A stretch of DNA of 16,000 nucleotides from an uncultured Phycisphaeraceae bacterium. Its GTDB lineage: Bacteria; Planctomycetota; Phycisphaerae; Phycisphaerales; Phycisphaeraceae. Positions 678 through 15,028 of this stretch are shown piece after piece (position 1 is the first letter of the stretch; the number at the start of each line of letters is the position of its first letter). The stretch is taken from positions 22,716-38,715 of the forward strand of contig CAYYGM010000019.1 of NCBI GenBank assembly GCA_964471555.1. The letters run 5' to 3'. The notes below the pieces were generated by a model. It saw only the letters and a program-made list of their open reading frames with translations. It made no database searches and was not told the DNA's origin. The position numbers and the translations under genes were made by a program.

Positions 678-808
678 ATTCGAATGACGAAATTCGAATG
701 ACGAATCAATGTTCAAATGACGAATGACGAAAGCTCAAAAAGTTTCGTCATTTGAACATTCGAGCATTCGTCATTCATTCGTCATTCGAATTTCGTCATT
801 CGAATTTC
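678..808. repeat. Heptamer-array hairpin element, family 1 (AATGACG/AAATTCG units), copy 1
   Basis: The left arm is 678-733 and the right arm is 743-808. The outer ~29 bp pair perfectly (AATTCGAATGACGAAATTCGAATGACGAA with its complement). ATGACGA recurs at 684, 698, 717 and 724. Positions 683-731 are 47/49 identical to 14867-14915, and 777-808 are 32/32 identical to 14965-14996. Confidence 0.85.
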
Positions 809-1755
809 TCCGCAGGAAACTGCGGGGTTCCGCCTTCCAGCACAGCCAGCACATCGCGCACGACCCAGCTCATGTTCAGCATGGCGGTGTCCGTGCGCGA
901 GGCCAGGTGCGGCAGCAACCGAACATTGGGCAGATCCCACAGCGGATAGGTTTCACCTTCCGGGGGCGGGGGTTCGGGGTCGTGGACGTCGAGAATGGCA
1001 TGAGCCTGCGGATTTCTTTTCGCCCAGTCGGCCAGGGCGGCTGCATCGACGATCATGCCGCGGGCGGCGTTGATCAGCAGAACGTTGGGCTTCAGCTTGG
1101 CCAGCATGGTCGGATTGACCAGATGCTTGTTGGCGGGCCGGCCGTCGATGTGGATGGTGACGATATCGCTGGCGGCATAGAGTTTGTCGTGATCGACGAA
1201 CTCGAAGGGGTAGTTGACCGCTTTGCGCAACTGGGCTTCAGGCAGCAGATCACAGGCGTGCACGTTCATGCCCAGGGCGTGGGCGACGCGGCCGAGCTTC
1301 TTACCGATGCGGCCGAAGCCGAGGATGCCGAGCGTGAGTTGATCCAGTTGCGTGCCGACCTCGGTCTTGCGCATCTCGTGGAATAGCGCCGCAGAAGCGC
1401 TCGGGGGCAAATCCTTCCGGGGGCGGTAGTGGTCGAGCATCAGGCCGAGCACGTACTCGACGACCGCCTGCGTGTTGGCGTCGGGCGTATAAACCACTTC
1501 GATGCCGCGTTTGCGGCAGGCGGGCACATCGATGTTGTCCAGTCCCACGCCGGCCCGGCCGACGACTTTCAGCCTGGGCGCCTTATCGAGCAGGGCGTCA
1601 TTGACCTGCGTGTAGGTGCGCACGATCAGGCCTTCCGCTTCAGCCAGCGCAGCGGCGAAGCCGGGATCATCATGTTTGCACCAGACGACCTGGGCCCGCT
1701 GAGCGAGCCAGTCCGCGGCGATGGGGTCGAGTGTTTCGGTGATGAGGATGTTCAT
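796..1755 (-). CDS. D-isomer-specific 2-hydroxyacid dehydrogenase (phosphoglycerate dehydrogenase-like), NAD-binding
   Basis: 319-aa ORF with an ATG at 1753-1755. It has the Rossmann motif GILGFGRIGKKLG and catalytic-domain architecture typical of the family. The last codons AAA TTC GAA TGA lie inside the repeat element. Confidence 0.85.
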   Translation of the reverse strand: MNILITETLDPIAADWLAQRAQVVWCKHDDPGFAAALAEAEGLIVRTYTQVNDALLDKAPRLKVVGRAGVGLDNIDVPACRKRGIEVVYTPDANTQAVVEYVLGLMLDHYRPRKDLPPSASAALFHEMRKTEVGTQLDQLTLGILGFGRIGKKLGRVAHALGMNVHACDLLPEAQLRKAVNYPFEFVDHDKLYAASDIVTIHIDGRPANKHLVNPTMLAKLKPNVLLINAARGMIVDAAALADWAKRNPQAHAILDVHDPEPPPPEGETYPLWDLPNVRLLPHLASRTDTAMLNMSWVVRDVLAVLEGGTPQFPAEKFE

Positions 1756-1794
1756 GGCAGGCAGTAGGGAGTAGGCAGCAGGGTGTTGCGCTGT

Positions 1795-1823
1795 AGCGTA
1801 CCGCGCAGGTCCTGGTTGCGCAA
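1795..1823 (-). promoter_or_regulatory. Candidate sigma70-type promoter for the dehydrogenase gene (TTGCGC-N17-TACGCT)
   Basis: On the minus strand TTGCGC (1823-1818) is followed by a 17-nt spacer and TACGCT (1800-1795). It lies just downstream of the ferredoxin terminator. The call rests on sequence resemblance only. Confidence 0.3.
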
Positions 1824-1857
1824 AAGAAAAAAGCCGACCGCGTGTTGCGATCGGCTT
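1821..1857 (-). terminator. Rho-independent terminator of the ferredoxin gene
   Basis: The minus-strand RNA reads AAGCCGAUCGC-AACAC-GCGGUCGGCUU. This is an 11-bp stem with one G-U pair, followed by UUUUUUCUUUU. Confidence 0.8.
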
Positions 1858-1927
1858 CGTTGGTCAGTTTCATAGCAAGCAGGCCCGGGGCCGAAGCCCC
1901 TACTGCCTGCTGCCTACTCCCTACTGC

Positions 1928-2188
1928 CTACTTCTTGTAATACGCTGCGTTCTTCTCGATAAAGCTGGCCCATTCCGAGGGCAGGTCTTCTTCGGGGAAG
2001 ATGGCCTTGACCGGGCACTCATCGACGCACAGGCCGCAGTCGATGCAGGTCTCGGGATCGATGTACAGCATCTCGGAGCTTTCGTATTCCGCTTCGTCCT
2101 TGGTCGGGTGAATGCAATCCACCGGGCAGACGGCGACGCAGGCGGTGTCCTTGGTTCCAATGCACGGCTCGGCAATGATATGAGGCAT
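1928..2188 (-). CDS. fdxA: 7Fe ferredoxin ([3Fe-4S][4Fe-4S], FdxA type)
   Basis: 86-aa ORF. It carries the cluster motifs CIGTKDTACVAVCPVDCIH and CIDCGLCVDECP, as in actinobacterial/Thermus-type FdxA. An AGGAG ribosome-binding site lies 8 nt upstream of the ATG at 2188. Confidence 0.9.
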   Translation of the reverse strand: MPHIIAEPCIGTKDTACVAVCPVDCIHPTKDEAEYESSEMLYIDPETCIDCGLCVDECPVKAIFPEEDLPSEWASFIEKNAAYYKK

Positions 2189-2312
2189 TTGATCGGCTCC
2201 TGGCCTGAAATAGTATGGATTCCAGCCTTCTTACAACGGCAGGCCCAAGGCGGGACTGGAAGGCCTGTGGAGTATATCGACCAAAGGCCCACCGGGGCAA
2301 ACCGCGATCCGT

Positions 2313-2318
2313 TACAAT
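2313..2318 (+). promoter_or_regulatory. Candidate -10 box TACAAT, 6 nt upstream of the methyltransferase ATG (possible leaderless mRNA)
   Basis: TACAAT at 2313-2318 and ATG at 2325, with no SD sequence between them. The arrangement matches 5-10/18. Confidence 0.35.
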
Positions 2319-2324
2319 CTTCAA

Positions 2325-3290
2325 ATGCCTCGTGCCAAGCCCAAAAGCACTGTGGATCTGCCGCGAAACACGCTGGTGCAGGGCGATTGCATCCAGCAGA
2401 TGACCGCCTGGCCCGCCGGCGGCGTCGATCTGATTTTCGCCGATCCGCCCTACAACATCGGCTACGAATACGACCAGTACGTCGACAAACGCAGCGACGA
2501 GGACTACGTACAGTGGACCTTCGACTGGATCGACGCCTGCACGCGGTTGCTCAAACCCAGCGGCTCGCTCTACGTGTTGATCGGCGACGAGTACGCGGCC
2601 GAGACGCGCGTGCACCTGAAAAAGTTGCAGGCTGAAGGCAAACTGCTGTTCCGCAACTGGATCATCTGGCACTACACCTTCGGCCAGCGCTGCAAGGCCA
2701 AGTTCAACCGCTCGCATGCCCACCTGTTCTACTGTGTCGGCTCGGCTGCGGTGGGTAAGGATGGCCAGCCCAAGCTCAACGGCAGTGATCTGCCTTTCAC
2801 CTTCCACTACGACGCCGCGGCCGTGCCCTCGGCTCGCATGACCACCTACAAGGACAAGCGGCAGAACCCCAAGGGCAAGCTGCCCGACGACACCTGGGTC
2901 GCTCGCTTTCCCGCCATGAAGGATTGGCACGTGCGCCCGCAGGAGGCTGCCCAAGAGGATTACTTCCAGGGCGACTGCGATACCTGGTACCAGTCTCGCC
3001 TATGCGGCACGTTCAAGGAGCGCACCGACTGGCATCCCTGCCAACTGCCCGAAGCCCTGCTCGAACGGATCATCAAGGTCAGTTCCAATCCGGGTGACCT
3101 GGTTTTCGATCCCTTTGCCGGCAGCGGCACGACTCTGGCGGTGGCAGCCAGGCTGGGACGCGACTGGTTAGGGTGCGAATTGAGTGAGGAATATGCCGCC
3201 AAGGCGCTCCGGCGCATCCGGGCGGTCGCCGGGGGTGGCAAGGCGAAGCGGGAACCAGCTTCCACTCAGTCCACACAATCACTTTTTTGA
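2325..3290 (+). CDS. Beta-class DNA methyltransferase (N6-adenine or N4-cytosine; PF01555-like), orphan
   Basis: 321-aa ORF. Motif IV DPPYN is near the N-terminus (GDCIQQM...VDLIFADPPYN) and motif I FDPFAGSGTT is near the C-terminus. That order is the beta-class arrangement. No restriction endonuclease gene is adjacent. Confidence 0.85.
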   Translation: MPRAKPKSTVDLPRNTLVQGDCIQQMTAWPAGGVDLIFADPPYNIGYEYDQYVDKRSDEDYVQWTFDWIDACTRLLKPSGSLYVLIGDEYAAETRVHLKKLQAEGKLLFRNWIIWHYTFGQRCKAKFNRSHAHLFYCVGSAAVGKDGQPKLNGSDLPFTFHYDAAAVPSARMTTYKDKRQNPKGKLPDDTWVARFPAMKDWHVRPQEAAQEDYFQGDCDTWYQSRLCGTFKERTDWHPCQLPEALLERIIKVSSNPGDLVFDPFAGSGTTLAVAARLGRDWLGCELSEEYAAKALRRIRAVAGGGKAKREPASTQSTQSLF

Positions 3291-3354
3291 GTCGGGGCTG
3301 TAACCAATACCTGTTCGTGGGGTCAAAACTCGTGGATTCACGAAAGGAGTACCC

Positions 3355-3894
3355 ATGGCTCGCATTCAAACGATCCAGGACGATCAAATGTCCGAGAAGA
3401 CCCGGGCCCAGTTGGAGCCGATCCGCAAGGCGCGCGGCCGCGTGATCAACATTTACGCCACCCTGGCTCATTCCCCGGCCGCACTGGAGTATGTGCTGGC
3501 CGGCGGCAAGGCCATGAGCAAGATGTCACTGAGCGCCAAGATGCGTGAAGCGGTGACGCTGGCCATCGCCGGGGTCAACCAGTGCGACTACTGTGCCGCG
3601 GCTCACAATGCCCTGGCCTTGAAGCTGGGCGTCAGCCAGCAGGAGTTGACCGACAACCTGCACGGCCGCAGCGCCGATCCGCAGACCCAGGCCGCCATCG
3701 ATCTGGCCCTGGCCCTGGTGGCCGGCGAAGGTCACGTCAGTGACGAGCAACTGGCTGCCGCCCGGGCGGCGGGGCTGGACAACACCAAAATTGTCGAACT
3801 GGTGGTGGTGGTGGCCCACAACCTGCTGACCAACTACATCAACCACGTCGCCCAGACGGACATCGACTTCCCGCTGGTGGCCATGCCGTCATGA
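3355..3894 (+). CDS. Carboxymuconolactone decarboxylase / AhpD-like family protein
   Basis: 179-aa ORF with the CxxC-containing signature NQCDYCAAAH. A strong AAGGAG ribosome-binding site at 3344-3349 lies 5 nt from the ATG. Confidence 0.8.
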   Translation: MARIQTIQDDQMSEKTRAQLEPIRKARGRVINIYATLAHSPAALEYVLAGGKAMSKMSLSAKMREAVTLAIAGVNQCDYCAAAHNALALKLGVSQQELTDNLHGRSADPQTQAAIDLALALVAGEGHVSDEQLAAARAAGLDNTKIVELVVVVAHNLLTNYINHVAQTDIDFPLVAMPS

Positions 3895-3923
3895 TCTCCC
3901 GCGAGCGAGTGAGCAGCGCGAGA

Positions 3924-3958
3924 GAAGCCCACCGCGATTCGCTGTGGGCTTCTTTTTT
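3924..3958 (+). terminator. Rho-independent terminator after the AhpD-like gene
   Basis: GAAGCCCAC (3924-3932) pairs with GTGGGCTTC (3944-3952) across an 11-nt loop. A TTTTTT tract follows at 3953-3958. Confidence 0.8.
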
Positions 3959-4027
3959 CGAAAAAACTCAATTCAATGCCTGCAAAGCGACGCGATTCAT
4001 CGCGCCGAACGCGGCAGATCCGCGCCG

Positions 4028-4399: not shown

Positions 4400-4402
4400 C
4401 GG

Positions 4403-4930
4403 TCAGTGCTCAACGCCCATGGCTTCGTGGCCCGCCTCTTCACCCTCGTGCATTTCACCGATCACTTGCTGAGCGGTTTCCCGATCGCCGGCCTTAAGCG
4501 CGGCGATCAACTCATCGACCAGCGGCGGCAGGGCGGAAAGCTTCTCATGGAAAGTCGCCATCTTCGCAGCCTGCTCCGCTTCCGGGGCGCGGCTGACCAA
4601 TTCCGGCGTCAACTGGCCGGCTCGCTCGAACAGCAGCTTGATACGCTGGGCGTGCTCCAATGACTGTGCGTCGCTGGCGGCATCCGTGATGTGGGTGCGC
4701 AGGAACTTGAAGGAGCGGCCGATCTGTTTCATCACGTCTTCCAGTTTGCTCAACTCGGCGATGTCGGCCGGAACCGCCTGCGCGTTTGAAGTCTCAGCAG
4801 CAGGTTCCGCCGCCGGTGCCTGGCTCGCATCCGGGGGCGCGGGCGGGGGTGTGGTGGACGTTCGCTCGCAGCCGAGCAGTGCCGCCGACACGATCAAAGC
4901 GATTCCGAGCAAGCCACTGAGTCTGATCAT
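4403..4930 (-). CDS. Lipoprotein with a cytochrome b562-like four-helix-bundle domain
   Basis: I placed the start at the internal ATG at 4930, which has an AAAGG 7 nt upstream. This gives the signal peptide MIRLSGLLGIALIVSAALLGC with an LLGC lipobox. A Pro/Ala linker follows, then a helical domain that aligns by eye to b562 (LEDVMKQI vs LEDNMETL; FHEKL...VDELIAALKAG vs FRHGF...IDDALKLANEG). The tail HEGEEAGHEAMGVEH is His/Glu-rich. Confidence 0.65.
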   Translation of the reverse strand: MIRLSGLLGIALIVSAALLGCERTSTTPPPAPPDASQAPAAEPAAETSNAQAVPADIAELSKLEDVMKQIGRSFKFLRTHITDAASDAQSLEHAQRIKLLFERAGQLTPELVSRAPEAEQAAKMATFHEKLSALPPLVDELIAALKAGDRETAQQVIGEMHEGEEAGHEAMGVEH

Positions 4931-5094
4931 GATCAACCTTTCAATGGAACTACCTGATTGGCCAATTGTTATACCCGTTTGCCGGCATGTCGCGTTTCGT
5001 GTGACATTTTTTCGCACGCCCGGCGTTGCCTTGAGACGCGTTTCTGGTAGGTTGTCAGCAGTGAAATTCATCGTCAGCGGAGGTAGAGCCAGGG

Positions 5095-8000
5095 ATGGCC
5101 GACAGTGCGTCCAACTCTTTTGTACACCTGCATTTACACACGCAATACTCCCTCCTCGACGGGGGCAATCGCATCGACCGTCTGATAGCCCGGGTCAAAG
5201 AACTGGGCATGGACGCGGTGGCGATGACCGACCACGGCAATCTGTTCGGCGCCGTGGAGTTTTACACCAAGGCCAAAGCCGCCCACGTCAAGCCGATCCT
5301 GGGCATCGAGGCTTACATCGCGCCCGATCTGGACGGCAAACCCTCCGATCGCACCAGCCGCGAGTACACCGGCGTGCAGGACGGCGGCTTCCACCTCGTG
5401 CTGCTGGCGGAGAACAACACCGGCTGGCGCAACCTGCTCAAGCTCTCCAGCGATTCCTACATCCACGGCTTCTACTACAAGCCGCGCATGGACAAGACCA
5501 CGCTCACCCAGTGGTCCGACGGCCTGATCGCCATCAACGGGCACCTCGGTTCGTCCATCGGCTACTACATGGTCAAGTTCGAGCAGTCCCGCGACCAGCG
5601 CCACTACGAAGCCGCCAAACGCGAGGCGCTCTGGCATGCCGAGGTCTTCAAGCCCAGCGAGAAAGGCGAGCCGCGCTTCTTCCTGGAACTGCAATCCCAC
5701 GAGGAGCAGTTGCAGGAGCAGATCAACCCGCACATCGTGCGCCTGGCCCGCGAGTTGAACCTGCCGCTGATCGCTGACAACGACGCCCACTTTCTGACGG
5801 CCGAGGACTATGACGCCCACGACACGCTCTGCTGCATCTCGATGGGCAAGATCAAGAGCGAGCAGAGCCGGCTGCACTATCCGCGCGATCTGTACGTCAA
5901 GCCCCCGGAAGTGATGCGCCGCCGTTTCTGTGATGAGTTGCAACTGCCCGAAGCGATCGACAACGCGGTGGCCGTGGCCGAGCGCTGCCACGTGGATCTG
6001 AAGTTCGGCGTCAGCCACGCCCCGGTGGTGCGCGTGGTCAAACACGAGGCCGACGACAATCTGAAGCAACTGCCCGAAGGTTCCACCGAGTGGTTCAAGG
6101 CTTTCTGCGCCCACTACGAGTTGCTGCCGGTTGACACGCACAAGCAGAAGGTGGACATCGCCCAGTTGAACAAGGCTTGCGATGCCGCCCTGCGCGATCT
6201 GTGCGAGGCGGGACTGATCTGGCGCTACGGCGCTTCCGGGACTTCCGGGGGCGGCGTCACCGACGACATCCGGGCCCGGCTCGAGCGCGAGTTGAAAGTG
6301 CTGGGCGATAAGTCCATCAGCGCCTACTTCCTGATCGTGTGGGACTTCGTCAACGAAGCCCGCCGCCGCGGCATCCCCGCCAACGCCCGCGGCTCCGGCG
6401 TCGGCACCATGGTCGGCTACTGCCTCGGTCTGTCCAACGCATGCCCCGTCAAGTACGGCCTGCTCTTCGAGCGATTCACCGATCCCGATCGCTCCGAGTA
6501 TCCCGACATCGACATCGACATGTGCCAGGACGGCCGCGGCGAGATCCTCCAGTACGTGCGCGACAAGTACGGCCACGTCGCCCAGATCATCACCTTCGGC
6601 ACGCTCAAAGCACGGGCGGCCATCCGCGACGTCGGCCGCGTGCTCGATGTGCCGCTGAGCGAAGTCGATCAACTGTGCAAGCTCGTCGGCGACGGCCTGG
6701 GCATGACCATCGACAAGGCCCTGGCCCAGGAGCCCAAGCTCGCCAAGCTCTACAAGGAATCGCAGCAGACCCGCCAACTGATCGACACCGCCCGCCAACT
6801 CGAAGGCATGACTCGTCATGCCGGCGTCCACGCGGCCGGCGTCGTCATCGCCACGCAACCGCTGGACAACCTGATCCCGCTCTACCAGCCGGCCGGCACC
6901 ACCCAACTGGTCACGCAGTGGGACGGCCCCACGGTGGAAAAAGTCGGCCTGCTCAAGATGGACTTCCTGGGCCTGCGCACGCTGTCAATCATCGAGCGAG
7001 CGCGGCAACTGATCCGCAAGACGCTCAGCGAAGAACAGATCCGCGCCGCGGTAGAATCGGGTATCGGGATTCGGGTATCGGGTATCGGGAAGACTTCCGA
7101 CAACGGTTCTACGACACCCGACACCCGACACCCGATACCCGATCACGATCCGCTCGACCTGGATCGCCTGACCTACGACGATCCCAGGGTGCTGGACCTG
7201 TTTGCCCGCGGCGAGACAGCCGGCGTGTTCCAGTTTGAATCCGGCGGCATGCGCAACACGCTGCTGGCCATGAAGCCCGACCGCTTCGAAGACCTGATCG
7301 CCGCCAACGCGCTGTTCCGGCCCGGGCCGATGGAGTTGATCCCCAACTACGCCAACCGCAAACACGGCCGCGAACAGGTGCCACGCGTGCACGAGGTAGT
7401 CGATCGCATCACCGCTGAGACCTACGGCATCATGGTCTACCAGGAACAGGTGATGCAGGTGCTCAACCAGCTTGGCGGTATTCCCCTGCGCGCTGCGTAC
7501 AGCATCATCAAGGCCATCAGCAAGAAAAAAGAGAAGACCATCAATGCCGCCCGCGAGGACTTCGTGGCCGGCGCCAGCCAGCGCGGCGTCAACAAGCGGC
7601 AGGCGGAGGAGATGTTCGAGCTGATCCTCAAGTTTGCAGGCTACGGCTTCAACAAGTCGCACTCCACCGGCTACGCCATCGTCGCTTACCAGACCGCATA
7701 CCTCAAGACCTATTTCCCCGTGCAGTACATGGCCGCGGTGCTCACCTACGAATCGGTCAGCACCGACAAGGTGGTCGAGTACATCGACGAATGCCGCCGC
7801 TGCCGCCTGCCTAACGGTGAACACGGCATCGAAGTGCGCCCGCCGGACATCAACCTGTCGGAGATTGCTTTCACCGTGGTCTATGACAAGGACGAGCCGC
7901 GCGATCCTTCGCATGGGCACATCCGTTTCGGGCTCAGTGCCGTCAAGGGCGTGGGTGAGAAGGCCATCAGCGCCATCATGCAGGAGCGCGAGAAGTCCGG

Positions 8001-9090
8001 GCCGTTCAAGGGCCTGTACGACTTCTGCGAGCGCGTGCCGCCGGGCACGGTGAATCGGGCCACGATTGAAGCCCTGATCAAATGCGGCGCCTTCGACAGC
8101 CTGCACGGCGTCGAGCAGCGCGCGGCCATGCTGGAGGCGCTGGACGCTGCGATTCAACTCGGCCAGCGCGCAGCCCGCGATCGCGCCAGCGGCCAGATGA
8201 ACTTCTTCAGCGCGGCGGCGGAGGCCGATTCATCGGCCGTCTCCTCCACCCCCGCCCCCGAGGCCATGTTGCCGCGCGTCGAGCCCTGGTCGCGCCAGCA
8301 GCAGCTCAAGCACGAAAAGGACGTGCTGGGTTTTTACATCTCCGCTCACCCGCTGGACGAGCATGCCGATCAGTTGGCCCGCTTCAGCAACGTGGCGGTC
8401 GCTGACATTCGCCGCCTGCCCGCCGACACGCCGGTGATCGTGGCCGGGATGATCAGTCGCCTGCGCCCCACGCGCACCAAGAAGGGCGACGCCATGGCCA
8501 TGCTCACGCTGGAAGACAAGACCGGCTCCATCGAGGCTGTCGCCTTCCCGCGCACCTTCGCTGTCTGCTCCGCGCTGTTGCAGCAGGACGCCATCGTTTA
8601 CCTGGAAGGCAAAGTCGATCGCCGCCGCGAGGAGCCCAACATCATCATCGATGCGGTGACGTCCATGGCCGAGGCCGAAGCGATGTACACCCGGGCGGTC
8701 AAGATCACCATGCACGATCCGTCACCTGCCGGCGCGGGCACTGTGTTCCAAAGTCGGTTGACGGACCTGAAGGAAGTGCTGCGTCAGGCCGGCCAGCGCC
8801 AGGCTCCGCGGCGAGCGGAGGTGATCTGCGAACTGCACCAGGCGGGCAAGGTGGTGACGCTGCGGCTCAACGGCCTGCGCGTGGCGGTGGACCAGCACCT
8901 GCTCAGCGGCGTGCGCGGCGTCCTGTCCCGCGCTGCCGGCGGACAGGTTGCCTGCGAGCCCATCGGCCCGCCGCGCCTGAACGTGCCCACTTCGCAGCCG
9001 GCCGATGACGACATGGACGAAGCCCCGCTGATCACCGTCGGCAGCGGACGCAGCGGCGGCGAAGTCTGCGCCAGCATCGACCGGTACTGA
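5095..9090 (+). CDS. dnaE: DNA polymerase III alpha subunit
   Basis: 1331-aa ORF. It has the PHP domain motif FVHLHLHTQYSLLDG, the conserved GETAGVFQFESGGM and ALFRPGP motifs, an OB fold and a C-terminal domain. A GGAGG lies 11 nt upstream of the ATG. Confidence 0.97.
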   Translation: MADSASNSFVHLHLHTQYSLLDGGNRIDRLIARVKELGMDAVAMTDHGNLFGAVEFYTKAKAAHVKPILGIEAYIAPDLDGKPSDRTSREYTGVQDGGFHLVLLAENNTGWRNLLKLSSDSYIHGFYYKPRMDKTTLTQWSDGLIAINGHLGSSIGYYMVKFEQSRDQRHYEAAKREALWHAEVFKPSEKGEPRFFLELQSHEEQLQEQINPHIVRLARELNLPLIADNDAHFLTAEDYDAHDTLCCISMGKIKSEQSRLHYPRDLYVKPPEVMRRRFCDELQLPEAIDNAVAVAERCHVDLKFGVSHAPVVRVVKHEADDNLKQLPEGSTEWFKAFCAHYELLPVDTHKQKVDIAQLNKACDAALRDLCEAGLIWRYGASGTSGGGVTDDIRARLERELKVLGDKSISAYFLIVWDFVNEARRRGIPANARGSGVGTMVGYCLGLSNACPVKYGLLFERFTDPDRSEYPDIDIDMCQDGRGEILQYVRDKYGHVAQIITFGTLKARAAIRDVGRVLDVPLSEVDQLCKLVGDGLGMTIDKALAQEPKLAKLYKESQQTRQLIDTARQLEGMTRHAGVHAAGVVIATQPLDNLIPLYQPAGTTQLVTQWDGPTVEKVGLLKMDFLGLRTLSIIERARQLIRKTLSEEQIRAAVESGIGIRVSGIGKTSDNGSTTPDTRHPIPDHDPLDLDRLTYDDPRVLDLFARGETAGVFQFESGGMRNTLLAMKPDRFEDLIAANALFRPGPMELIPNYANRKHGREQVPRVHEVVDRITAETYGIMVYQEQVMQVLNQLGGIPLRAAYSIIKAISKKKEKTINAAREDFVAGASQRGVNKRQAEEMFELILKFAGYGFNKSHSTGYAIVAYQTAYLKTYFPVQYMAAVLTYESVSTDKVVEYIDECRRCRLPNGEHGIEVRPPDINLSEIAFTVVYDKDEPRDPSHGHIRFGLSAVKGVGEKAISAIMQEREKSGPFKGLYDFCERVPPGTVNRATIEALIKCGAFDSLHGVEQRAAMLEALDAAIQLGQRAARDRASGQMNFFSAAAEADSSAVSSTPAPEAMLPRVEPWSRQQQLKHEKDVLGFYISAHPLDEHADQLARFSNVAVADIRRLPADTPVIVAGMISRLRPTRTKKGDAMAMLTLEDKTGSIEAVAFPRTFAVCSALLQQDAIVYLEGKVDRRREEPNIIIDAVTSMAEAEAMYTRAVKITMHDPSPAGAGTVFQSRLTDLKEVLRQAGQRQAPRRAEVICELHQAGKVVTLRLNGLRVAVDQHLLSGVRGVLSRAAGGQVACEPIGPPRLNVPTSQPADDDMDEAPLITVGSGRSGGEVCASIDRY
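7054..7146 (+). repeat. Heptamer-array hairpin, family 3 (NATCGGG / CACCCGA units), inserted in frame in dnaE
   Basis: TCGGG occurs at 7057, 7064, 7071, 7078 and 7085. CCCGA occurs at 7117, 7124, 7131 and 7138, with a strict 7-bp period. The spacer is 25 nt. Positions 7056-7068 are a perfect reverse complement of 7131-7143. The element encodes ESGIGIRVSGIGKTSDNGSTTPDTRHPIPDH. Confidence 0.85.
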
Positions 9091-9095
9091 TGTGT

Positions 9096-9151
9096 GAGCG
9101 AGCCGCGTTGTGTCAACGCGGAACACCGCCGCGACACGCGGCGGCTCGCTT
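9096..9151 (+). other. Three-way-junction-type RNA/DNA structure immediately 3' of dnaE
   Basis: The outer stem pairs GAGCGAG (9096-9102) with CTCGCTT (9145-9151). It encloses two perfect 8-bp hairpins with 3-nt loops: CCGCGTTG-tgt-CAACGCGG (9103-9121) and CCGCCGCG-aca-CGCGGCGG (9126-9144). No U-tract follows. Confidence 0.5.
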
Positions 9152-9305
9152 GTGATATCATCACCATCTGATGGCAACTGCCTGAGCAACAGCCCGGCCG
9201 ACCGCCGCCCCACGGCGCGGTGACTGCGCACACGTCTTGATGTGCCGGGCTGATCCTCCGCTTGTGTCCGTTGTTTTCCCCGCACACGCGCGCGAGTTGC
9301 TCCCC

Positions 9306-9653
9306 ATGTCATCCGGTTTCACCTGCATTCACTGTCGCCAGCCGGTGGACGGCCGCTCGTTCGGCACCCGGCATCGCAATCACTGTCCCTATTGCCTGTG
9401 GTCGCGCCACGTGGACGTCCAGCCCGGCGATCGCCAATGCGCCTGCCGCGCCCCGATGCGCCCGATCGGCATCGAGGTGCGCGATGCTGCAACCTCCGGC
9501 GGGGGCGAATGGGCCATCATCCATCGCTGCACCGGCTGCGGCGCCATCAAGGTCAACCGCATTGCCGGCGACGACCGCGAGCTGGCCCTGCTGCAACTGG
9601 TGCTGCGTCCGCTGGCCAATCCGCCGTTCCCGCTGGATCATTTGCCCAGTTGA
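9306..9653 (+). CDS. RNHCP domain-containing protein (Cys-rich, function unknown)
   Basis: I placed the start at the ATG at 9306. The literal motif TRHRNHCPYCLWSRH is present, along with additional CxxC pairs (CIHC, CTGC). The upstream part of the tracked ORF (9237-9305) looks non-coding. Confidence 0.8.
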   Translation: MSSGFTCIHCRQPVDGRSFGTRHRNHCPYCLWSRHVDVQPGDRQCACRAPMRPIGIEVRDAATSGGGEWAIIHRCTGCGAIKVNRIAGDDRELALLQLVLRPLANPPFPLDHLPS

Positions 9654-9748
9654 TGTCTGATGTGTGATTGCTGATCTCTGATGTGAGAACCGCAACTCAT
9701 CCCTGCCTTTTTACATCAGCAATCAGCCATCAGCGATCAGACATCATC
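9651..9748. repeat. Heptamer-array hairpin, family 4 (TGATSTS / NATCAGC units), between convergent genes
   Basis: TGA occurs at 9651, 9658, 9665, 9672 and 9679. TCA occurs at 9716, 9723, 9730, 9737 and 9744, with a strict 7-bp period and 5 units per arm. Positions 9651-9661 are a perfect complement of 9736-9746. About 29 of 36 arm positions can pair, and the loop is about 25 nt. Both flanking stop codons lie inside the arms. Confidence 0.8.
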
Positions 9749-9949
9749 TTCCACCCGGGCAATCGCCTTGCGGTCCCTGTCATAGATGTACAGCTTGCCC
9801 GGTTCAGCTTCATGCGAGCGGCAGAGCTTGTGCGAGCCGTCGCAGAGGGGCAGTTTCTGGCTCAGGCCGCAGCCGCAGATCCAGGCGCTTTTTTCCTGGG
9901 GCTTGATCTCGTAAGGTCCAAGCTGATCGTGTCGCACCATTCTGGCCAT
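9737..9949 (-). CDS. CDGSH iron-sulfur domain protein (mitoNEET-like [2Fe-2S])
   Basis: I placed the start at the ATG at 9949, which has an AAGGAG 7 nt upstream. The 70-aa product contains CGCGLSQKLPLCDGSHK. Confidence 0.8.
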   Translation of the reverse strand: MARMVRHDQLGPYEIKPQEKSAWICGCGLSQKLPLCDGSHKLCRSHEAEPGKLYIYDRDRKAIARVEDDV

Positions 9950-9969
9950 GGGTTGGCTCCTTTCGCCCT

Positions 9970-9994
9970 CATCATAGGCACTCCGACTATGATG
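9970..9994. promoter_or_regulatory. Perfect 8-bp inverted repeat CATCATAG-N9-CTATGATG in the 52-bp divergent promoter region; each arm reads TATGAT toward its gene
   Basis: The repeat is seen directly at 9970-9977 and 9987-9994. TATGAT at 9988-9993 lies 8 nt upstream of the MFS ATG at 10002. The mirrored TATGAT faces the CDGSH gene. Confidence 0.4.
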
Positions 9995-10001
9995 GATCGA
10001 C

Positions 10002-11207
10002 ATGTCCGTGCTGGCGTCAACGCGCTATGGGCGGCGGGCGTTGTTCGCGGCCCTGTATTTTTCGGAAGGCGCGCCCATTGGTTTTCTGTGGTGGGCGCTG
10101 CCGGTGCTGCTGCGCCGTCACGACATGCCGGTGCAGGTGATCGGCTCGACGCTGGCCATGCTGGCGCTGCCGTGGACGATCAAGTTCCTGTGGGCGCCGA
10201 TGGTCGATCGCCTGCGCGGCCGGCAATGGGGGCATCGGGCCTGGATCGTCAGCGCCCAATTGCTGATGGGTCTGACGCTGCTGCCGTTGGTCTGGCTGGA
10301 TCCGGCCCGGGACTTCGGCGTCGTGTGGTGGCTGTTGCTGGCTCACGCCCTGGCCGCCACCACGCAGGACGTGGCCATCGACGCCTGGGCCATTCATCTG
10401 ACCCAGCGTGATGAGCGGGCCGGCCTCAGCGGTTTCATGCAGGCGGGCATGCTCAGCGGGCGCTGGCTGTTCGGCGCGGGTCTGCTGTTGTTGCGGGGCA
10501 CACTGCCGCAGGCGCTGGTGATCGGACTGCTGGTGGCAGCCGTGTGGTGCACGACGTTGCTGGTGCTGATCGCCGGACCGGGCCGGGCAAGCCGGGATCA
10601 ACCGATGGGCAAATTCTGGCCTGTGATCAAACAGGTGCTGAGTCGGCGCAACACATGGTTGGGGATGGCTCTTGCCTTGCTGGCGGGGGCGGCCTTCGAA
10701 TCGACGGCTGGTATGGCGGGCGTGCTGCTGACGGACATGGGCTTCAGTGAAACCCAGAGCGGCGCCTACTTCACCGCTCGCGTCGTGGCCATGCTCAGCG
10801 GGTCGCTGGCCGGTGGATTGTTATTCGATCGCCTGTCACGGCGAATATCGGTAGGCGGCTCGATCGTGTACGTGGCACTGGCTGTCGGCGCGGTGGCGGG
10901 TTGCACCGCACTGGACCTGCCGCGCGGAGCGTACGTGGCCCTGGTGGCGATGGACCTGGGCATCGGGCTGCTGACTGCCTCGTCGTATGCCCTGTGGATG
11001 GACCTGACCGACGACCGCATCGGCGGCACGCAGTTCAGCGCTTACATGGGTGCGACCAACGCCTGTGAAGTGTGGGCCATCTTTCTCGTGGGACAACTGG
11101 CGGCCGGCTATGGTTACGCGGCGGCGTTCAGTGTGATGGCGCTGTTGAGTCTGCTGGCGCTGCCGGTGCTGGGGATGATTAGCGAAGGCGAAGCTCAGTC
11201 ATCGTAG
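10002..11207 (+). CDS. AmpG-like MFS permease (PAT family)
   Basis: 401-aa polytopic membrane protein. It carries the family signature LPWTIKFLWAPMVDR after the first TM pair, preceded by LYFSEGAPIGF. Confidence 0.8.
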   Translation: MSVLASTRYGRRALFAALYFSEGAPIGFLWWALPVLLRRHDMPVQVIGSTLAMLALPWTIKFLWAPMVDRLRGRQWGHRAWIVSAQLLMGLTLLPLVWLDPARDFGVVWWLLLAHALAATTQDVAIDAWAIHLTQRDERAGLSGFMQAGMLSGRWLFGAGLLLLRGTLPQALVIGLLVAAVWCTTLLVLIAGPGRASRDQPMGKFWPVIKQVLSRRNTWLGMALALLAGAAFESTAGMAGVLLTDMGFSETQSGAYFTARVVAMLSGSLAGGLLFDRLSRRISVGGSIVYVALAVGAVAGCTALDLPRGAYVALVAMDLGIGLLTASSYALWMDLTDDRIGGTQFSAYMGATNACEVWAIFLVGQLAAGYGYAAAFSVMALLSLLALPVLGMISEGEAQSS

Positions 11208-12385
11208 TTGCCGAACTCCAGAGCCGCGGCATACATGGCAGCCAGGTTTTCCTCGGGCACCAGCGGCGGCAGATTGTGGGCTTCGCGCAACACGAAACGT
11301 TTGCCCGCCATCACGCCGCTTTGCAGGATCTGCCGCGAGCGCTCGAACACCTGCTCAGGCGAACCCTTGAGCAGCAGCGGCACCGGGGGCCCGCCCTGGA
11401 TCATGACGTCCTCACCCAGCTTTCGCCGCAGGTCGCCGTGGTCCACGGGGAAGCCGGTGTCGAAGACGGTGATGTTGATCTCCTCGTGCATGGCGGGGAA
11501 CAGGTGCGTGGCGTTGCCGCACATGTGCAGGGCACGCTCGCTGTCGGGCGCTGCGCCGCAGCCGTCGGTTTCCTGGATGCGATACAGACGGTCGTGGTGC
11601 GGCTTGACCAGCGTGCGCCATTGCTCAACACCCAGCATGGCGCAGGCGTCGTCGGCGATGTGATGATGCGGCGGGCGGACGATGGCGCCGTCGAACGCTT
11701 TCAGCAAGGCGCGGCGGCGATGAGCGACCGAATCGACCACGAAGGCCATCAGCTTCTGTGCATACTCCGGCTCCGTGAGCAGGTCCATGAGGAAAGTCGG
11801 ACCGCGCAGGTTGCAGCCGATGGTGACCGGCCCGTCCGTGCCCAGATAGCTGACCGGCAGCAGCTTGACCGGCCGACCCTCGAATGTCATGCCGTCAGCC
11901 AGCTTCTTCATGTCGCGCCACATGCGCAGTTGATGTTTCCAGTAAGGCGTTTCCAGCGGGTGCTCGATATCGACGTCGAACACCTCGTTTCGCCGATCGT
12001 CGTCGGCGAAAGGCGGCGGCTCGGTGGTCGGCACCTGGTCCGGGGGGAAGCACACCTGGCCCCCAAACGCGGCCGCCTCGTACACGTTGTGCAGGTACAG
12101 CGGAACTTCCCAAACGTCCGGCAATTCGTGCGGCCAATCCGAATGTCTGCTGATCACCTGCCGGTTGAACAGCAGGTGCTGAAGTTCCATCTTCAGATGG
12201 GCCCTGGGATCGTGGTAGCAATCCTCGAAGCTGTATCCGTCGGGATTCCAATCCGGCAGAACCATCACCACGCGCACGTTGGTCTTGATGAACATGGGCA
12301 CGCGCGTGTGCCTGCCTTCGCGGTAGGCCCGCCACAAGGCAGCCTTTTCCTGATCGCTGATGATCGGATGTTCGAGCAGGGGCAT
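11195..12385 (-). CDS. Uroporphyrinogen decarboxylase (URO-D) superfamily protein, MtaA/CmuA-like, paralog 1
   Basis: 396-aa ORF. It has the LHMCGNATHLFP (H-x-C) motif and the C-terminal pattern GKRFVLREAHNLPPLVPEENLAAMYAAALEFG typical of URO-D-fold enzymes. It is about 70% identical to the adjacent paralog. Confidence 0.75.
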   Translation of the reverse strand: MPLLEHPIISDQEKAALWRAYREGRHTRVPMFIKTNVRVVMVLPDWNPDGYSFEDCYHDPRAHLKMELQHLLFNRQVISRHSDWPHELPDVWEVPLYLHNVYEAAAFGGQVCFPPDQVPTTEPPPFADDDRRNEVFDVDIEHPLETPYWKHQLRMWRDMKKLADGMTFEGRPVKLLPVSYLGTDGPVTIGCNLRGPTFLMDLLTEPEYAQKLMAFVVDSVAHRRRALLKAFDGAIVRPPHHHIADDACAMLGVEQWRTLVKPHHDRLYRIQETDGCGAAPDSERALHMCGNATHLFPAMHEEINITVFDTGFPVDHGDLRRKLGEDVMIQGGPPVPLLLKGSPEQVFERSRQILQSGVMAGKRFVLREAHNLPPLVPEENLAAMYAAALEFGNYDD

Positions 12386-12524
12386 GCGTTCACTCTTTTG
12401 TTGTAAGGTTCAGGTCAGCAACGTGTACCGTGAGTTCAATCTACCACCAGCCGCCGTGAAATCGGCGTCTTTTCCGCCGATGCGCCTGAAATGACATACG
12501 ACACACCGATTTCGGCAGGCGGCT

Positions 12525-13721
12525 TCAAGGCTGATCGTAATTCCCGTATTCCAGGCACGCGGCATACATGGCGGCCAGGTTCTCCTCGGGCACCAGCGGC
12601 GGCAGGTTGTTGCCCTCGCGCAGGGTGAAGTAGCCGCCATCCATGACGCCGCTCTGGAGGATTTCGCGTGTGCGCTCGAAGACCTGTTCGGTTGTGCCGT
12701 TGAGCAGCACCTGCACCTGCGGGCCGCCCTGGATTTCCACCTCGGGGCCGAGCTTGCGCCGCATGGCCCCGTGATCGATGGGGAAGCCGGTGTCGAAGAG
12801 GGTGACGTTCAGTTCTTCGTGCAGTGCGGGGAACAGATGCGAGGCGTTGCCGCACATGTGCATGCCGCGGCGGGCCCGGGGATTGGTGGAGCCGAAGCCG
12901 TCGGTCTCCAGCATGCGGTAGAGGCGTTCGTGATGAGGCTTGACCAGCGTGCGCCACTGTTCAAGTCCGAGCATGGCGCAGGAGTCGTCGGCGATGCCGT
13001 GGTGCGGGGCGCGCAGGATGTTGCCGTCGAACTCTTCCATCAGGGCGCGGCGGCGATAAGACAACGCATCCACCACGAAGCTCATCAGTTTCTGGGCGTA
13101 CTCCGGCTCGGTCAGCAGGTCCATGAGGAAATTGGTGCCGCGCAGGTTGCAGCCGGCGGTGACCGGGCCGTCGGTGCCCATGTTGCCGATCGGCATCACC
13201 CGGACCGGCCGACCCTCGAAGGTCATGTCCGCGGCCAGCTTCACCATCTCCCGCCACATGCGCAGTTGATGTTTCCAGTAGGGCGAATCCAACGGGTGCT
13301 CAATATCGACCTCGAACACCTCGTGACGCAGATCGTCGTCGGCGAAAGGCGGCGGCTCGGTGGTCGGCACCTGGCCCGATGGGAAGCACACCGTGGCCCC
13401 GAAGGCTGCCGCCTCGTAGATGTTGTGAAAAAACAGCGGCACCTCCCACACGTCGGGCAATTCGTGCGGCAGATCGCTGTGCTTGCCGATCACCCGCCGA
13501 CGGTACAGCGCCATCTGAAGCTCCATCTTCAGATGAATCAGCGGATCGTTGTGGCAATCCTCGAACGTGTAGCCGTCCGGGTTCCACTGCGGCAGCGGCA
13601 TCACCACGCGCACGGTGGTGCCGATCGTCACCGGCACGCGCCGGCCGCGGCCCTCGGCGTGGGCTTGCCACAGGGCGAGTTTTTCCTGGTCGCTGATGAC
13701 GGGATGTTCGAGCAATTGCAT
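12525..13721 (-). CDS. Uroporphyrinogen decarboxylase (URO-D) superfamily protein, MtaA/CmuA-like, paralog 2
   Basis: 398-aa ORF with the same motifs (MHMCGNASHLFP; YFTLREGNNLPPLVPEENLAAMYAACLEYG). A GGAG lies 8 nt upstream of the ATG at 13721. Confidence 0.75.
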   Translation of the reverse strand: MQLLEHPVISDQEKLALWQAHAEGRGRRVPVTIGTTVRVVMPLPQWNPDGYTFEDCHNDPLIHLKMELQMALYRRRVIGKHSDLPHELPDVWEVPLFFHNIYEAAAFGATVCFPSGQVPTTEPPPFADDDLRHEVFEVDIEHPLDSPYWKHQLRMWREMVKLAADMTFEGRPVRVMPIGNMGTDGPVTAGCNLRGTNFLMDLLTEPEYAQKLMSFVVDALSYRRRALMEEFDGNILRAPHHGIADDSCAMLGLEQWRTLVKPHHERLYRMLETDGFGSTNPRARRGMHMCGNASHLFPALHEELNVTLFDTGFPIDHGAMRRKLGPEVEIQGGPQVQVLLNGTTEQVFERTREILQSGVMDGGYFTLREGNNLPPLVPEENLAAMYAACLEYGNYDQP

Positions 13722-13814
13722 TGGGGCACTCCAGGTTCAGAGGCAAACCAGCATAGAGCGCCGCGGCACTGACCGCTTGCATTTTTCTTGAGCGAGAAAA
13801 TCAAACATGCCGCC

Positions 13815-14852
13815 TCAGGGCACGAGCACCAGCTTGCCGATGTGGCGATCCCGGGCCATGAATTCGTGGGCAGCCACAACATCCCGCAATGCGAACGTGC
13901 GTGCCACACGTTGCTGGAACACGCCGGTCTGAAACAGTTCCAGGATCGCTGCACACGCCGGCCGCCAGACGGATTCGCCCTGTTCGACCATGGCCGACAT
14001 CAGGAACGTCTCGATGCGGCCGCGCCGCGCGATCAGCGGATGCAGGTCCACGACATCCGGTTTGCCGAGCAGGCCATAGAAGCACAGCACGCCGCCCGGA
14101 GCCAGGCAGCGGATTTCCTCGGTGAGGTACGGCCCGGCCGCCACGGGATCGAAGAACACATCAATGCCGTGGCCGTCGGTGATCTGTTTGATCTGTTGTC
14201 GCCACGGCCGCATGATGCGCTGCCCCGCGTCGTCACGATCGTGGGTGATCACCAGGTGATCGAACTGTTCGGCGATGGCGGCCGCTTTGTCTTCGCTGCT
14301 GGTCAGGCCGACGGGGATGGCGTCGAAGTGGCGCACGACCTGCGCCGCCGCCAGGCCGACGCCGCTGGAGGCTGCGGGGATGGCGACGAACTGGCCCGGC
14401 TGTAACCCGATCTTCCAGACCAGTGCGCCCCAGGCGGTCAGATAAGTCAGCCAGATGGCGCCGAGCTGGTCATCGTCAATCGCATCGGGTGCTGCGATCA
14501 ACAGATCGGTGCTGACGATCATGTGCGAACGATAGGTGCCGCCGTGCGCACCTTGCACGCCGCGCGGCACGTGGGGCCCCAGCAGCACGCGCTGGCCGGT
14601 TTGCCAATCGGTGACATCGGGCCCGATTGCATCGATGACGCCGCCGCCTTCGAGGCCGGGCGTGTAAGGCGGTTCGCCGGTGGAAAGCTTGTAGTGGCCG
14701 GCGCGGCCCATCAGGTCGGCGTGGTTCATGCCGATGCTGGTCAGGCGCACACGCACCTGGCCCGGCCCCGGCTGCGGCATCGGCTCGTGGACCACGTGCA
14801 TCACTTGCGGGGGGCCGAACTGGGGGACGAGGATGCGCGTGCAGTGGGACAT
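13815..14852 (-). CDS. NADPH:quinone oxidoreductase / zeta-crystallin-type MDR family oxidoreductase
   Basis: I placed the start at the ATG at 14852 (MSHCTRILVPQFG...). The 32 codons upstream in the tracked ORF are a translation of the repeat element. The ORF has the GroES-like N-terminus and the AASSGVGLAAAQV nucleotide-binding motif. Confidence 0.85.
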   Translation of the reverse strand: MSHCTRILVPQFGPPQVMHVVHEPMPQPGPGQVRVRLTSIGMNHADLMGRAGHYKLSTGEPPYTPGLEGGGVIDAIGPDVTDWQTGQRVLLGPHVPRGVQGAHGGTYRSHMIVSTDLLIAAPDAIDDDQLGAIWLTYLTAWGALVWKIGLQPGQFVAIPAASSGVGLAAAQVVRHFDAIPVGLTSSEDKAAAIAEQFDHLVITHDRDDAGQRIMRPWRQQIKQITDGHGIDVFFDPVAAGPYLTEEIRCLAPGGVLCFYGLLGKPDVVDLHPLIARRGRIETFLMSAMVEQGESVWRPACAAILELFQTGVFQQRVARTFALRDVVAAHEFMARDRHIGKLVLVP

Positions 14853-14860
14853 GGGGGGTA

Positions 14861-15028
14861 ATGATGAATGACGAAATTCGAATGACGAAACAATGTTCGA
14901 ATGACGAATGACGAATGACGAAGTGTAACAGTTTCGCCAATCGGACATTCGTCATTGGAATTTAATTCGTCATTCGAATTTCGTCATTCGAATTTCCGCT
15001 CCAGCGGTTGTCGTCATTCGAATTTCCC
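14861..15028. repeat. Heptamer-array hairpin element, family 1, copy 2, plus an extra solo unit
   Basis: The left arm is 14861-14922 and the right arm is 14946-14997. ATGACGA recurs at 14868, 14882, 14901, 14908 and 14915. The element is homologous to 678-808 (see that feature). The solo unit TCGTCATTCGAATTTCC at 15011-15027 duplicates 14981-14997. Confidence 0.85.

Follow-up and report, generated by a model that had tools for sequence, protein, structure and literature searches.

Hairpins with tandem-heptamer arms from a Phycisphaeraceae contig belong to a widespread class of small palindromic elements in Planctomycetes and Verrucomicrobia

We analyzed a 16,000-nucleotide stretch of DNA from an uncultured Phycisphaeraceae bacterium (assembly GCA_964471555.1, contig CAYYGM010000019.1, positions 22,716 to 38,715; this whole stretch is hereafter called the window), in which five hairpins have arms built from tandem units of about 7 nt. 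They are genuine members of a class of small palindromic elements that is widespread in Planctomycetes and Verrucomicrobia. We consider it fairly probable that they are lineage-wide dispersed, non-coding palindromic elements, each composed of a heptanucleotide array arm and its inverted complement, which are copy-pasted, evolve by 7-nt slippage, and resemble repetitive extragenic palindromes (REP), Rickettsia palindromic elements (RPE) and short tandemly repeated repetitive (STRR) sequences. A preliminary description of this sequence knew of no inverted heptamer arrays placed precisely at gene boundaries; hairpins of 7-bp repeats at intergenic sites were, however, already known from cyanobacteria (STRR; PMC2670836), so that the architecture has a precedent. 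New are the host range, the predominance of inverted pairs, the sharing of arms as blocks across phyla, the recurrent in-frame occupation of a DnaE loop and the polarity of the arms. In the literature searched, beyond whose reach lay many subscription papers, we found no prior description of these elements in Planctomycetota or Verrucomicrobiota.

Five heptamer hairpins and their class

Each of the five loci forms a hairpin whose arms repeat with a period of approximately 7 nt. Locus 1 (676-808; arms at about 676-731 and 744-808; family 1, AATGACG/AAATTCG) occupies the entire gap between the convergent genes of an O-methyltransferase (18-677, + strand) and a 2-hydroxyacid dehydrogenase (796-1755, -). 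The stop codon of the former (TAA, 675-677) overlaps its first unit, and that of the latter (TGA, 796-798, -) lies within its right arm. Locus 2 (1756-1932; family 2, AGGCAGT/AGGGAGT), whose arms (1759-1782 and 1906-1929) are 100% complementary, is placed between a ferredoxin gene (1928-2188, -; stop codon TAG, 1928-1930, -) and the start codon of the dehydrogenase (1753-1755, -). Its interior of 123 nt contains a terminator-like stem-loop (1830-1858, -), the best canonical site of the window in a terminator scan. Locus 3 (7054-7146, +; family 3, ATCGGGT, with CGACACC/CGATACC in the right arm) lies in frame inside dnaE (5095-9090, +). Locus 4 (9648-9749; arms 9651-9684 and 9713-9746; family 4, TGATGTC/TGATTGC/TGATCTC) separates the convergent genes RNHCP (9237-9653, +) and CDGSH (9737-10003, -); the stop codon TGA (9651-9653) coincides with the first unit, and TGA (9737-9739, -) lies within the right arm. 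Locus 5, the second family 1 element (14860-15026; left arm 14860-14922, right arm 14947-14996), has an extra right-arm block at 15011-15026, beyond a small GC hairpin. It is found between the probable start codon of an alcohol dehydrogenase (ADH) gene (ATG, 14851-14853, -) and the stop codon (TAG, 15028-15030, -) of a gene at 15028-15969 (-). At the four intergenic loci the gap is filled completely and the flanking stop codons are inside the outermost units or at most 3 nt from them; in two cases, the 3' arm is followed by a start codon 3-7 nt on. The exact placement at gene boundaries proposed earlier thus stands for these four loci, but not for locus 3 nor for the 7 of 87 period-7 hairpins of related genomes that are situated in open reading frames (ORFs).

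Tandem Repeats Finder (TRF) reported period-7 arrays at 681-731 and 744-802 (locus 1), 1759-1782 and 1899-1932 (locus 2), 7056-7089 and 7112-7142 (locus 3), 9651-9684 and 9714-9746 (locus 4), and 14860-14922 and 14965-14990 (locus 5). A repeat search paired the inverted arms of loci 1 to 5 over 51 nt (84% complementarity), 24 nt (100%), 32 nt (88%), 42 nt (79%) and 24 nt (100%), respectively. The spacers measure 12-30 nt at loci 1, 3 and 4, 123 nt at locus 2 and, depending on the register, 24-76 nt at locus 5. The RNA folds, compared to dinucleotide shuffles, reached -67.2 kcal/mol (z -10.4) at locus 1, -109.4 kcal/mol (z -10.3) at locus 2, -55.3 kcal/mol (z -6.3) at locus 3, -47.1 kcal/mol (z -7.5) at locus 4 and -70.1 kcal/mol (z -9.1) at locus 5. 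An ungapped hairpin detector returned 4 hairpins with a score of at least 14 in the window, whereas 60 dinucleotide-preserving shuffles averaged 0.02 (at most 1), in no case with period-7 arms. A control of 50 kb from E. coli contained 0 period-7 arrays and 0 period-7 hairpins. Rfam 15 gave no hit reaching the gathering score, only sub-threshold look-alikes of plant miRNA precursors, which are generic long hairpins.

The TRF arrays, the arm pairing, the folds and the shuffles bear out the five inverted period-7 loci reported previously. The strict period that had been stated does not apply to loci 1 and 5, which are 7/14-nt mosaics with indels (TRF, 66-71% matches and 13-16% indels). Because these two loci have the non-repeat core CAATGTTC in common, they represent one family. 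Both are 75-88% similar to family 1 copies of other genomes (BLAST).

Outside the window, we examined 8-kb blocks around exact matches to a family 1 24-mer (GAATGACGAAATTCGAATGACGAA) from about 45 assemblies (843-875 kb; labels from L001 to L121 designate related contigs). These blocks were chosen by family 1, and further statistics disregard family 1 itself where so stated. The 24-mer was found exactly in more than 112 eight-kb stretches, against a chance expectation of about 0.004. Among the matches listed, its carriers are Phycisphaerae, Tepidisphaeraceae, Pirellulales, Gemmataceae and Planctomycetaceae, further Udaeobacter, Chthoniobacter and Brevifollis, and metagenome-assembled genomes (MAGs) labeled Chloroflexi and Haliangiales in their records. 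In the MAG labeled "Chloroflexi," which harbors 17 family 1 blocks, the NCBIfam matches were to housekeeping enzymes without taxonomic signal, and the label is that of the record only.

We counted 130 tandem arrays of period 7 and 59 of period 14 in 843 kb of these related genomes; no other period exceeded 23 arrays, and shuffles gave 0-2. Among the arrays there are 61 canonical unit sequences, in agreement with the earlier proposal that families have the period and the architecture in common but differ in their units. Outside family 1, an inverted partner lay no more than 250 nt away for 45 of 87 arrays, and a direct partner for 9. Period-7 arms were found in 87 of 159 long hairpins, 27 of these 87 lacking any family 1 word, with other periods contributing at most 6 each; this is in good agreement with a genuine class, as previously suggested, rather than five coincidences. 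Contigs found through dnaE homologues, and not through family 1, contained 13 period-7 hairpins in 192 kb. The density of the hairpins depends on the lineage, the window having five in 16 kb and contig L116 none in 24 kb.

Dispersal of the families and the DnaE loop

The families of the window recur elsewhere. Arms of family 2 (AGGCAGTAGGGAGTAGGCAGC) are 23/24 identical at L009:5171-5259 (MAG SJ399), in another context and around a 41-nt loop, and those of family 3 are found again at L013:2471-2542, with the variant units in equal order and an unrelated loop. Family 4-like and further copies are present in other Phycisphaeraceae MAGs, where families 2, 3 and 4 keep their unit order but differ in loops and contexts. 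Since slippage from a local seed would not give an equal unit order at unlinked sites, the arms must have been copied as blocks. The earlier statement that the hairpins are not one family copied around is thus valid between families but not within them, each unit type being dispersed (L009:5171, L013:2471 and the 24-mer in more than 112 places). Family 1 has genome-specific subfamilies; the outer block of its copies is conserved, and the interior varies. The copies are 72-88% alike over 120-150 nt, with unit number and loop varying and termini differing by whole units. Composite arms occur in L025, where a second type of heptamer array is located outside the family 1 arms.

Dispersed families, a conserved terminal block (the 24-mer) with a variable interior and genome-specific subfamilies would suit ordinary miniature inverted-repeat transposable elements (MITEs), that is, deletion derivatives of insertion sequences encoding a DDE transposase, with terminal inverted repeats and target-site duplications. 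Only the dispersal part of this picture was found, however. The direct repeats at the borders of 69 family 1 copies had the distribution of a mismatched-flank control, giving no sign of a target-site duplication; the copies differ in unit number, loop and whole-unit position of their termini, and at 72-88% they are not near-identical. In addition, an autonomous partner was absent from the 112 listed eight-kb blocks, no plasmid matched, and only two viral contigs did. An origin as MITEs is therefore very unlikely. Even less probable is that the hairpins are REPINs, i.e., inverted REP pairs mobilized by a REP-associated tyrosine transposase (RAYT; an IS200-like Y1 transposase). Like REPs, bacterial interspersed mosaic elements (BIMEs) and REPINs, the heptamer hairpins are small dispersed palindromic DNAs near gene 3' ends, extragenic apart from in-frame exceptions, with several families per genome, inverted hairpin-forming pairs and no target-site duplication; moreover, GTAG occurs in family 2, CGTC in family 1, and a Y1_Tnp gene in one related MAG. 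But REPs are imperfect palindromes of 20-40 nt with a GTAG or CGTC tag (PMC3733652), whereas each heptamer arm is a non-palindromic tandem array without an unpaired tag and, in families 2 to 4, without internal stems. A tblastn search of 875 kb for Y1 (IS200/RAYT-like) transposases identified only one, in L101, and none in the window or beside any heptamer hairpin, in line with the earlier remark that the window has no RAYT/TnpA-like gene. The GTAG tetranucleotide, initially read as a hint of RAYT, lost this meaning, as the arms are not REP palindromes and the sole Y1 gene is flanked by other REPs.

In L101 (6480-7440), the Y1_Tnp gene (6698-7171) is bracketed by GC-rich REP palindromes (GGGCCAACGGCCC, GTGGGGC..GCCCCAC) and not by heptamer arrays, and thus a conventional REP/RAYT system coexists with heptamer hairpins in a Planctomycetota MAG. 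Inverted arrays of AGTTGTC and CTGACAA were observed in Gemmataceae and Tepidisphaeraceae MAGs (L004:1344-1561 and L054:2458-2587). The AGTTGTC-type unit (ttgtcagttgtcagttgtca) is a 44-copy intergenic repeat in Nostoc PCC 7120 (PMC2408588) and is one base off the TAACTGA repeat of Beggiatoaceae and cyanobacteria (PMC4679880).

The hairpin inside dnaE gives the most detailed view of a single site. Locus 3 covers approximately codons 654-684 of the ORF and encodes ESGIGIRVSGIGKTSDNGSTTPDTRHPIPD, which is part of an insertion of about 39 residues relative to the Taq Pol III alpha subunit (query 108-152 versus chain residues 638-643 in the PDB alignment). The relatives of the window DnaE are all from Phycisphaerae (Planctomycetota). 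The syntenic metagenome contig L001, whose DnaE is 75% identical, has the same dnaE hairpin with an equal number of units. Between the two, the loop peptide TSDNGSTTP is preserved through synonymous changes, including TCC to AGT; the dnaE insert is therefore old and constrained as protein. The orthologous site of locus 2 in L001 likewise retains the right arm and the inner terminator, so that the comparison of orthologous regions called for in the preliminary description showed loci 2 and 3 to be kept, with unit numbers varying among copies elsewhere. L001, a JGI contig, ends within the locus 2 hairpin (1-112), only the right arm and the inner terminator being present, and such elements therefore break short-read assemblies.

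Among 112 Phycisphaerae DnaE homologues, 19 showed an amino acid periodicity at lag 7 (21 nt, or three units) in runs of at least 3, compared to 0-2 for other lags. At the DNA level, heptamer hairpins at this site were confirmed in eight further contigs. The unit is GGTATCG in the window, L001 and L120, GGGTCTG in L117, AGGGTCT with CCACACC in L119, GTGACCG in L114, CGATGTG in L115 and GCGAACC in L118, while L116 has no hairpin; the hairpins of L001, L120, L117 and L119 are orthologous to locus 3. In L121 (12029-12139), the loop is occupied by the AT-rich family 1 itself. Because the units differ among lineages, different families must have entered this one DnaE loop on several occasions, whereas in one clade a single ancestral insert has diverged. 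The in-frame family 1 peptide of L121, NDEARMTNDE...SSFEFRHSS, is found in the DnaE of P0048 (L121) and also of P0058, and is a signature usable for finding in-frame copies in protein databases. One and the same unit occurs twice within 17 kb of L115. In the loop of the CGATGTG hairpin in dnaE of this contig (5232-5252), we noticed a small palindrome, GACTCGGGAGTC, preceded by GTAGAA as in the family 3 arm of the window. It could be the remnant of an older hairpin inside newer outer arms, which would point to outward growth or nested insertion.

These copies also indicate how the arms change. Five homologous dnaE hairpins aligned in register displayed six pairs with double, structure-preserving changes, mainly in L117. 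In L119, with which L117 has much of the dnaE gene neighborhood in common, the right arm is homogenized to (CCACACC)x4 and the left arm no longer matches it, whereas the arms of L117 are compensated. The left arm of L114 carries TGA to TTA and other frame-keeping changes; its stop-free right arm is a perfect array. Among the 69 family 1 copies, the arms have 1-10 units and are equal in 15 copies (r = 0.23). Such unit-count and homogenization patterns are what slippage in 7-nt steps, acting on each arm independently and with rapid homogenization within an arm, would predict. Heptanucleotides are the commonest long simple sequence repeat (SSR) unit in most surveyed genomes, for which a polymerase-contact explanation was offered (Mrazek et al. 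2007, as summarized in PMC4679880), and template switching creates and homogenizes inverted repeats (PMC8794818, PMC13100816). The latter explains a perfect inverted copy in one step and compensated changes, such as those of the L117 versus the window dnaE hairpins, but as a mutational mechanism rather than an element family it explains neither the dispersal nor the 7-nt period.

The two arms are not equivalent in composition. G outnumbers C in the 5' arm of 22 of 26 hairpins not belonging to family 1 and of 53 of 55 that do, whereas non-period-7 hairpins are split 26 to 21. Counted by unit group, 18/22 have more G than C in the 5' arm and the reverse in the 3' arm (p = 0.004). Since the element is a palindrome, this polarity is valid on both strands. 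Selection of G-rich 5' arms for stop codons in all frames (7 = 1 mod 3) had an anecdotal fit in the window only and was ruled out in the sample, left arms outside family 1 having 1.00 stop-bearing frames versus 1.14 in composition-matched shuffles. For single arrays located after stop codons, the polarity relative to the upstream gene was positive in 5 and negative in 3, an uninformative split.

Placement and explanations of the hairpins

With gap classes taken from a crude gene call based on G+C at third codon positions, the period-7 hairpins were distributed over 37 tandem, 16 convergent and 8 divergent gaps, compared to 333, 111 and 106 in the background. The hairpin core typically began shortly after the stop codon (median, 18 nt). 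A moxR-DUF58-type operon in L020 has a family 1 hairpin in each of two consecutive intercistronic gaps, and in L027 a hairpin lies in frame within a PSD1 domain protein.

As dispersed copy-paste elements, the hairpins would arise as follows. An arm, including the order of its unit variants, is copied as a block, as the recurrence of families 2 to 4 shows, giving several families per genome and families common to several genomes. Copying leaves no target-site duplication, as seen for family 1, and presumably depends on a copying enzyme. Insertions survive where they do little harm: immediately behind a stop codon, between the cistrons of an operon, or in frame in a permissive surface loop, of which that of DnaE is an example. 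Once in place, the two arms change their unit numbers independently, and a single substitution comes to occupy all units of an arm, probably by 7-nt replication slippage. In some lineages, as compensated double changes indicate, the complementarity of the arms appears to be regained occasionally, through template switching in the hairpin or selection on the stem. With complementary units repeated in both arms, the stem should tolerate the gain or loss of a unit and still pair afterwards. In transcripts, the elements may fold into highly stable stem-loops, between cistrons or at the 3' ends of mRNAs, with REP- or STRR-like stabilization or operon punctuation. The most economical view is that of REP/RPE-like elements tolerated at gene ends; by analogy, a role in mRNA stabilization or coupling can be put forward as a proposal.

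Several observations weigh against this explanation. Neither a mobilizing enzyme nor an autonomous copy was found, opposed family 1 ends 0.7-3 kb apart occurring in 0 of the 112 listed blocks. The model does not account for the G>C polarity of the 5' arms. In the dnaE genes of L118 and L115, the left array begins within conserved flanking codons, which fits local seeding. Loci 2 and 3, i.e., both of the two testable loci, are kept at orthologous sites despite 75% DnaE identity; this retention, together with purifying selection on the DnaE-loop peptide, indicates more stability than is typical of selfish DNA, and the close apposition of the hairpins to start and stop codons likewise argues against pure selfishness. 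As for an action at the RNA level, all heptamer stems lack the U-tract of an intrinsic terminator, the terminator scan flagging only 1830-1858 (-) inside locus 2, and mismatches in the sense-strand stems are A.C in 22 cases versus G.U in 10, which gives no support for RNA-level selection.

The beginning of the L118 and L115 arrays in conserved codons is one reason to consider a purely local origin, in which a 7-nt seed is amplified by slippage and its inverted copy is made by a template switch, without any element moving. The extreme diversity of the units (61 canonical sequences), the homogenization within arms, the absence of an inverted partner for about half of the heptamer arrays and the documented capacity of template switching to generate hairpins (PMC8794818) are in line with such an origin. 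It does not, however, explain arms with equal orders of variant units at unlinked loci and in other genomes, an exact 24-mer common to about 45 assemblies of several phyla (among the matches listed), family 1 in frame in one DnaE lineage (L121) or one unit found twice within 17 kb of L115, and we regard it as improbable. Use by the host, with the hairpins selected as terminators, 3'-end stabilizers, intercistronic processing sites or binding sites of a protein with a 7-nt footprint, e.g., a cold-shock-domain protein, is also unlikely but deserves some weight. It would be compatible with the short distance to stop codons (median 18 nt), the orthologous retention at 75% DnaE identity and the very stable folds. 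In addition, a period independent of sequence points to a physical footprint, each CspB protein binds a single heptanucleotide (as reviewed in PMC4679880), and a role in transcript stability or translational coupling was proposed for STRR hairpins (PMC2670836). Nevertheless, the copies in frame in dnaE and in the PSD1 domain protein cannot be terminators, U-tracts are missing, A.C exceeds G.U among the sense-strand mismatches, the arms can lose their complementarity (L119), and the density differs strongly between related lineages, from none in L116 to five in the window.

A further and quite doubtful possibility is a sequence-independent process working in 7-nt steps, by an enzyme or a single-strand-binding protein with a heptanucleotide footprint and possibly shared with cyanobacteria, that makes the hairpins. 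Inverted arrays would be built and renewed from arbitrary seeds, the G-rich 5' and C-rich 3' arms would be imposed by the process, and the dnaE-loop hairpin would be kept across much of Phycisphaerae while its unit turns over. If so, this would be a new kind of genome-shaping mechanism and not a selfish repeat family. Finally, an assembly or binning artefact of short-read metagenomes is effectively refuted. Although the window and most of the related records are MAGs, and contig L001 ends inside a hairpin, the same architecture recurs in dozens of independent assemblies, including contigs of 0.6-3.9 Mb, and the dnaE copies stay in frame, with conservation at the protein level in material from many sources.

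Among known systems, the nearest resemblance in architecture is to the cyanobacterial 7-bp STRR hairpins, while the mode of action would be analogous to that of REP/BIME/REPIN and RPE elements. Classical STRR units of cyanobacteria are CCCCAGT, TTGGTCA and CAACAGT. In filamentous cyanobacteria, 7-bp repeats form, e.g., the hupS-hupL intergenic hairpin, for which functions in stability and translational coupling were proposed (PMC2670836). Tandem 7-bp units at all five loci, several unit families per genome and inverted arrays that can fold into a stem-loop between genes or cistrons are common to both, and the AGTTGTC unit of L004 and L054, the only matching one, is that of the Nostoc repeat (PMC2408588). 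Unlike STRR, our elements are hosted by Planctomycetota and Verrucomicrobiota (plus otherwise-labeled MAGs), their dominant units differ, the inverted-pair form predominates, arms are block-shared between genomes, and copies lie in frame in essential genes. Like the heptanucleotide long SSRs of prokaryotes, they have a sequence-independent period of 7, an intergenic bias, units shared across phyla without an evident vehicle and an explanation by polymerase slippage. These SSRs are nevertheless direct arrays (169 direct sets and 1 indirect in the BOGUAY genome; PMC4679880), whereas in our sample about half of the arrays pair up as inverted arms. In-frame copies in conserved protein genes (dnaE and the PSD1 domain protein) are reminiscent, by analogy only, of RPE. 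The latter, reportedly described by Ogata et al. in Science in 2000, are said to lie between genes and in frame in conserved protein genes, to whose products they contribute a surface segment. Neither the sequence nor the host of RPE is related, and their arms are not known to consist of tandem heptamers. To our knowledge, repeated insertion of different families into a single DnaE loop has not been described for RPE.

If the hairpins are indeed dispersed copy-paste elements, element-rich lineages of the Planctomycetes-Verrucomicrobia-Chlamydiae superphylum such as that of the window would have hundreds of them per genome. They would act as punctuation within operons, provide genes with stop codons and C-terminal residues, and insert peptide segments into essential proteins, e.g., the replicative polymerase. 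The hairpins offer a natural system for the 7-nt preference of slippage, indel-tolerant stems and concerted evolution of inverted repeats. They also link the cyanobacterial STRR repeats, long without an explanation, to a second, unrelated superphylum, making a general mechanism testable by comparative genomics.

Other features of the window

The window has a G+C content of 63% and an ordinary housekeeping gene set. In addition to the genes mentioned above, it contains those of a DNA methyltransferase (2325-3290, +), a CMD-family protein (3355-3894, +), a cytochrome b562-like protein (4403-5071, -) and a major facilitator superfamily (MFS) transporter (10002-11207, +). Beside the latter lie two adjoining, paralogous UroD-like genes (11195-12385, 396 amino acids, and 12525-13721, 398 amino acids; both -), which, from their sequences, seem to resemble the methyltransferase-type UroD family more than that of heme biosynthesis.

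Immediately 3' of the dnaE stop codon (TGA, 9088-9090), we observed a sixth gene-end hairpin (9083-9165; -50.4 kcal/mol, z -4.2), with a GC-rich stem (GAGCGAGCCGCG / CGCGGCGGCTCGC) but neither heptamer arms nor a U-tract. The sequence at its base, TGATGTGTGA, is similar to the family 4 unit.

The longest ORF of the zinc-dependent ADH gene (13815-14948, -) has its ATG inside the family 1 element of locus 5. The drop in G+C and the offset of the Pfam domain indicate that the true start is probably the ATG at 14851-14853 (-); heptamer hairpins can mislead gene callers, and this over-long ORF is an example. The protein encoded on the other side of locus 5 (15028-15969, -) is without a Pfam match. 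Its gene has an internal period-9 repeat at 15110-15156 (GTCTGCTGC, 5.2 copies), which encodes a low-complexity tail, KQTQQTQQTQQAQ, near the C terminus of the protein.

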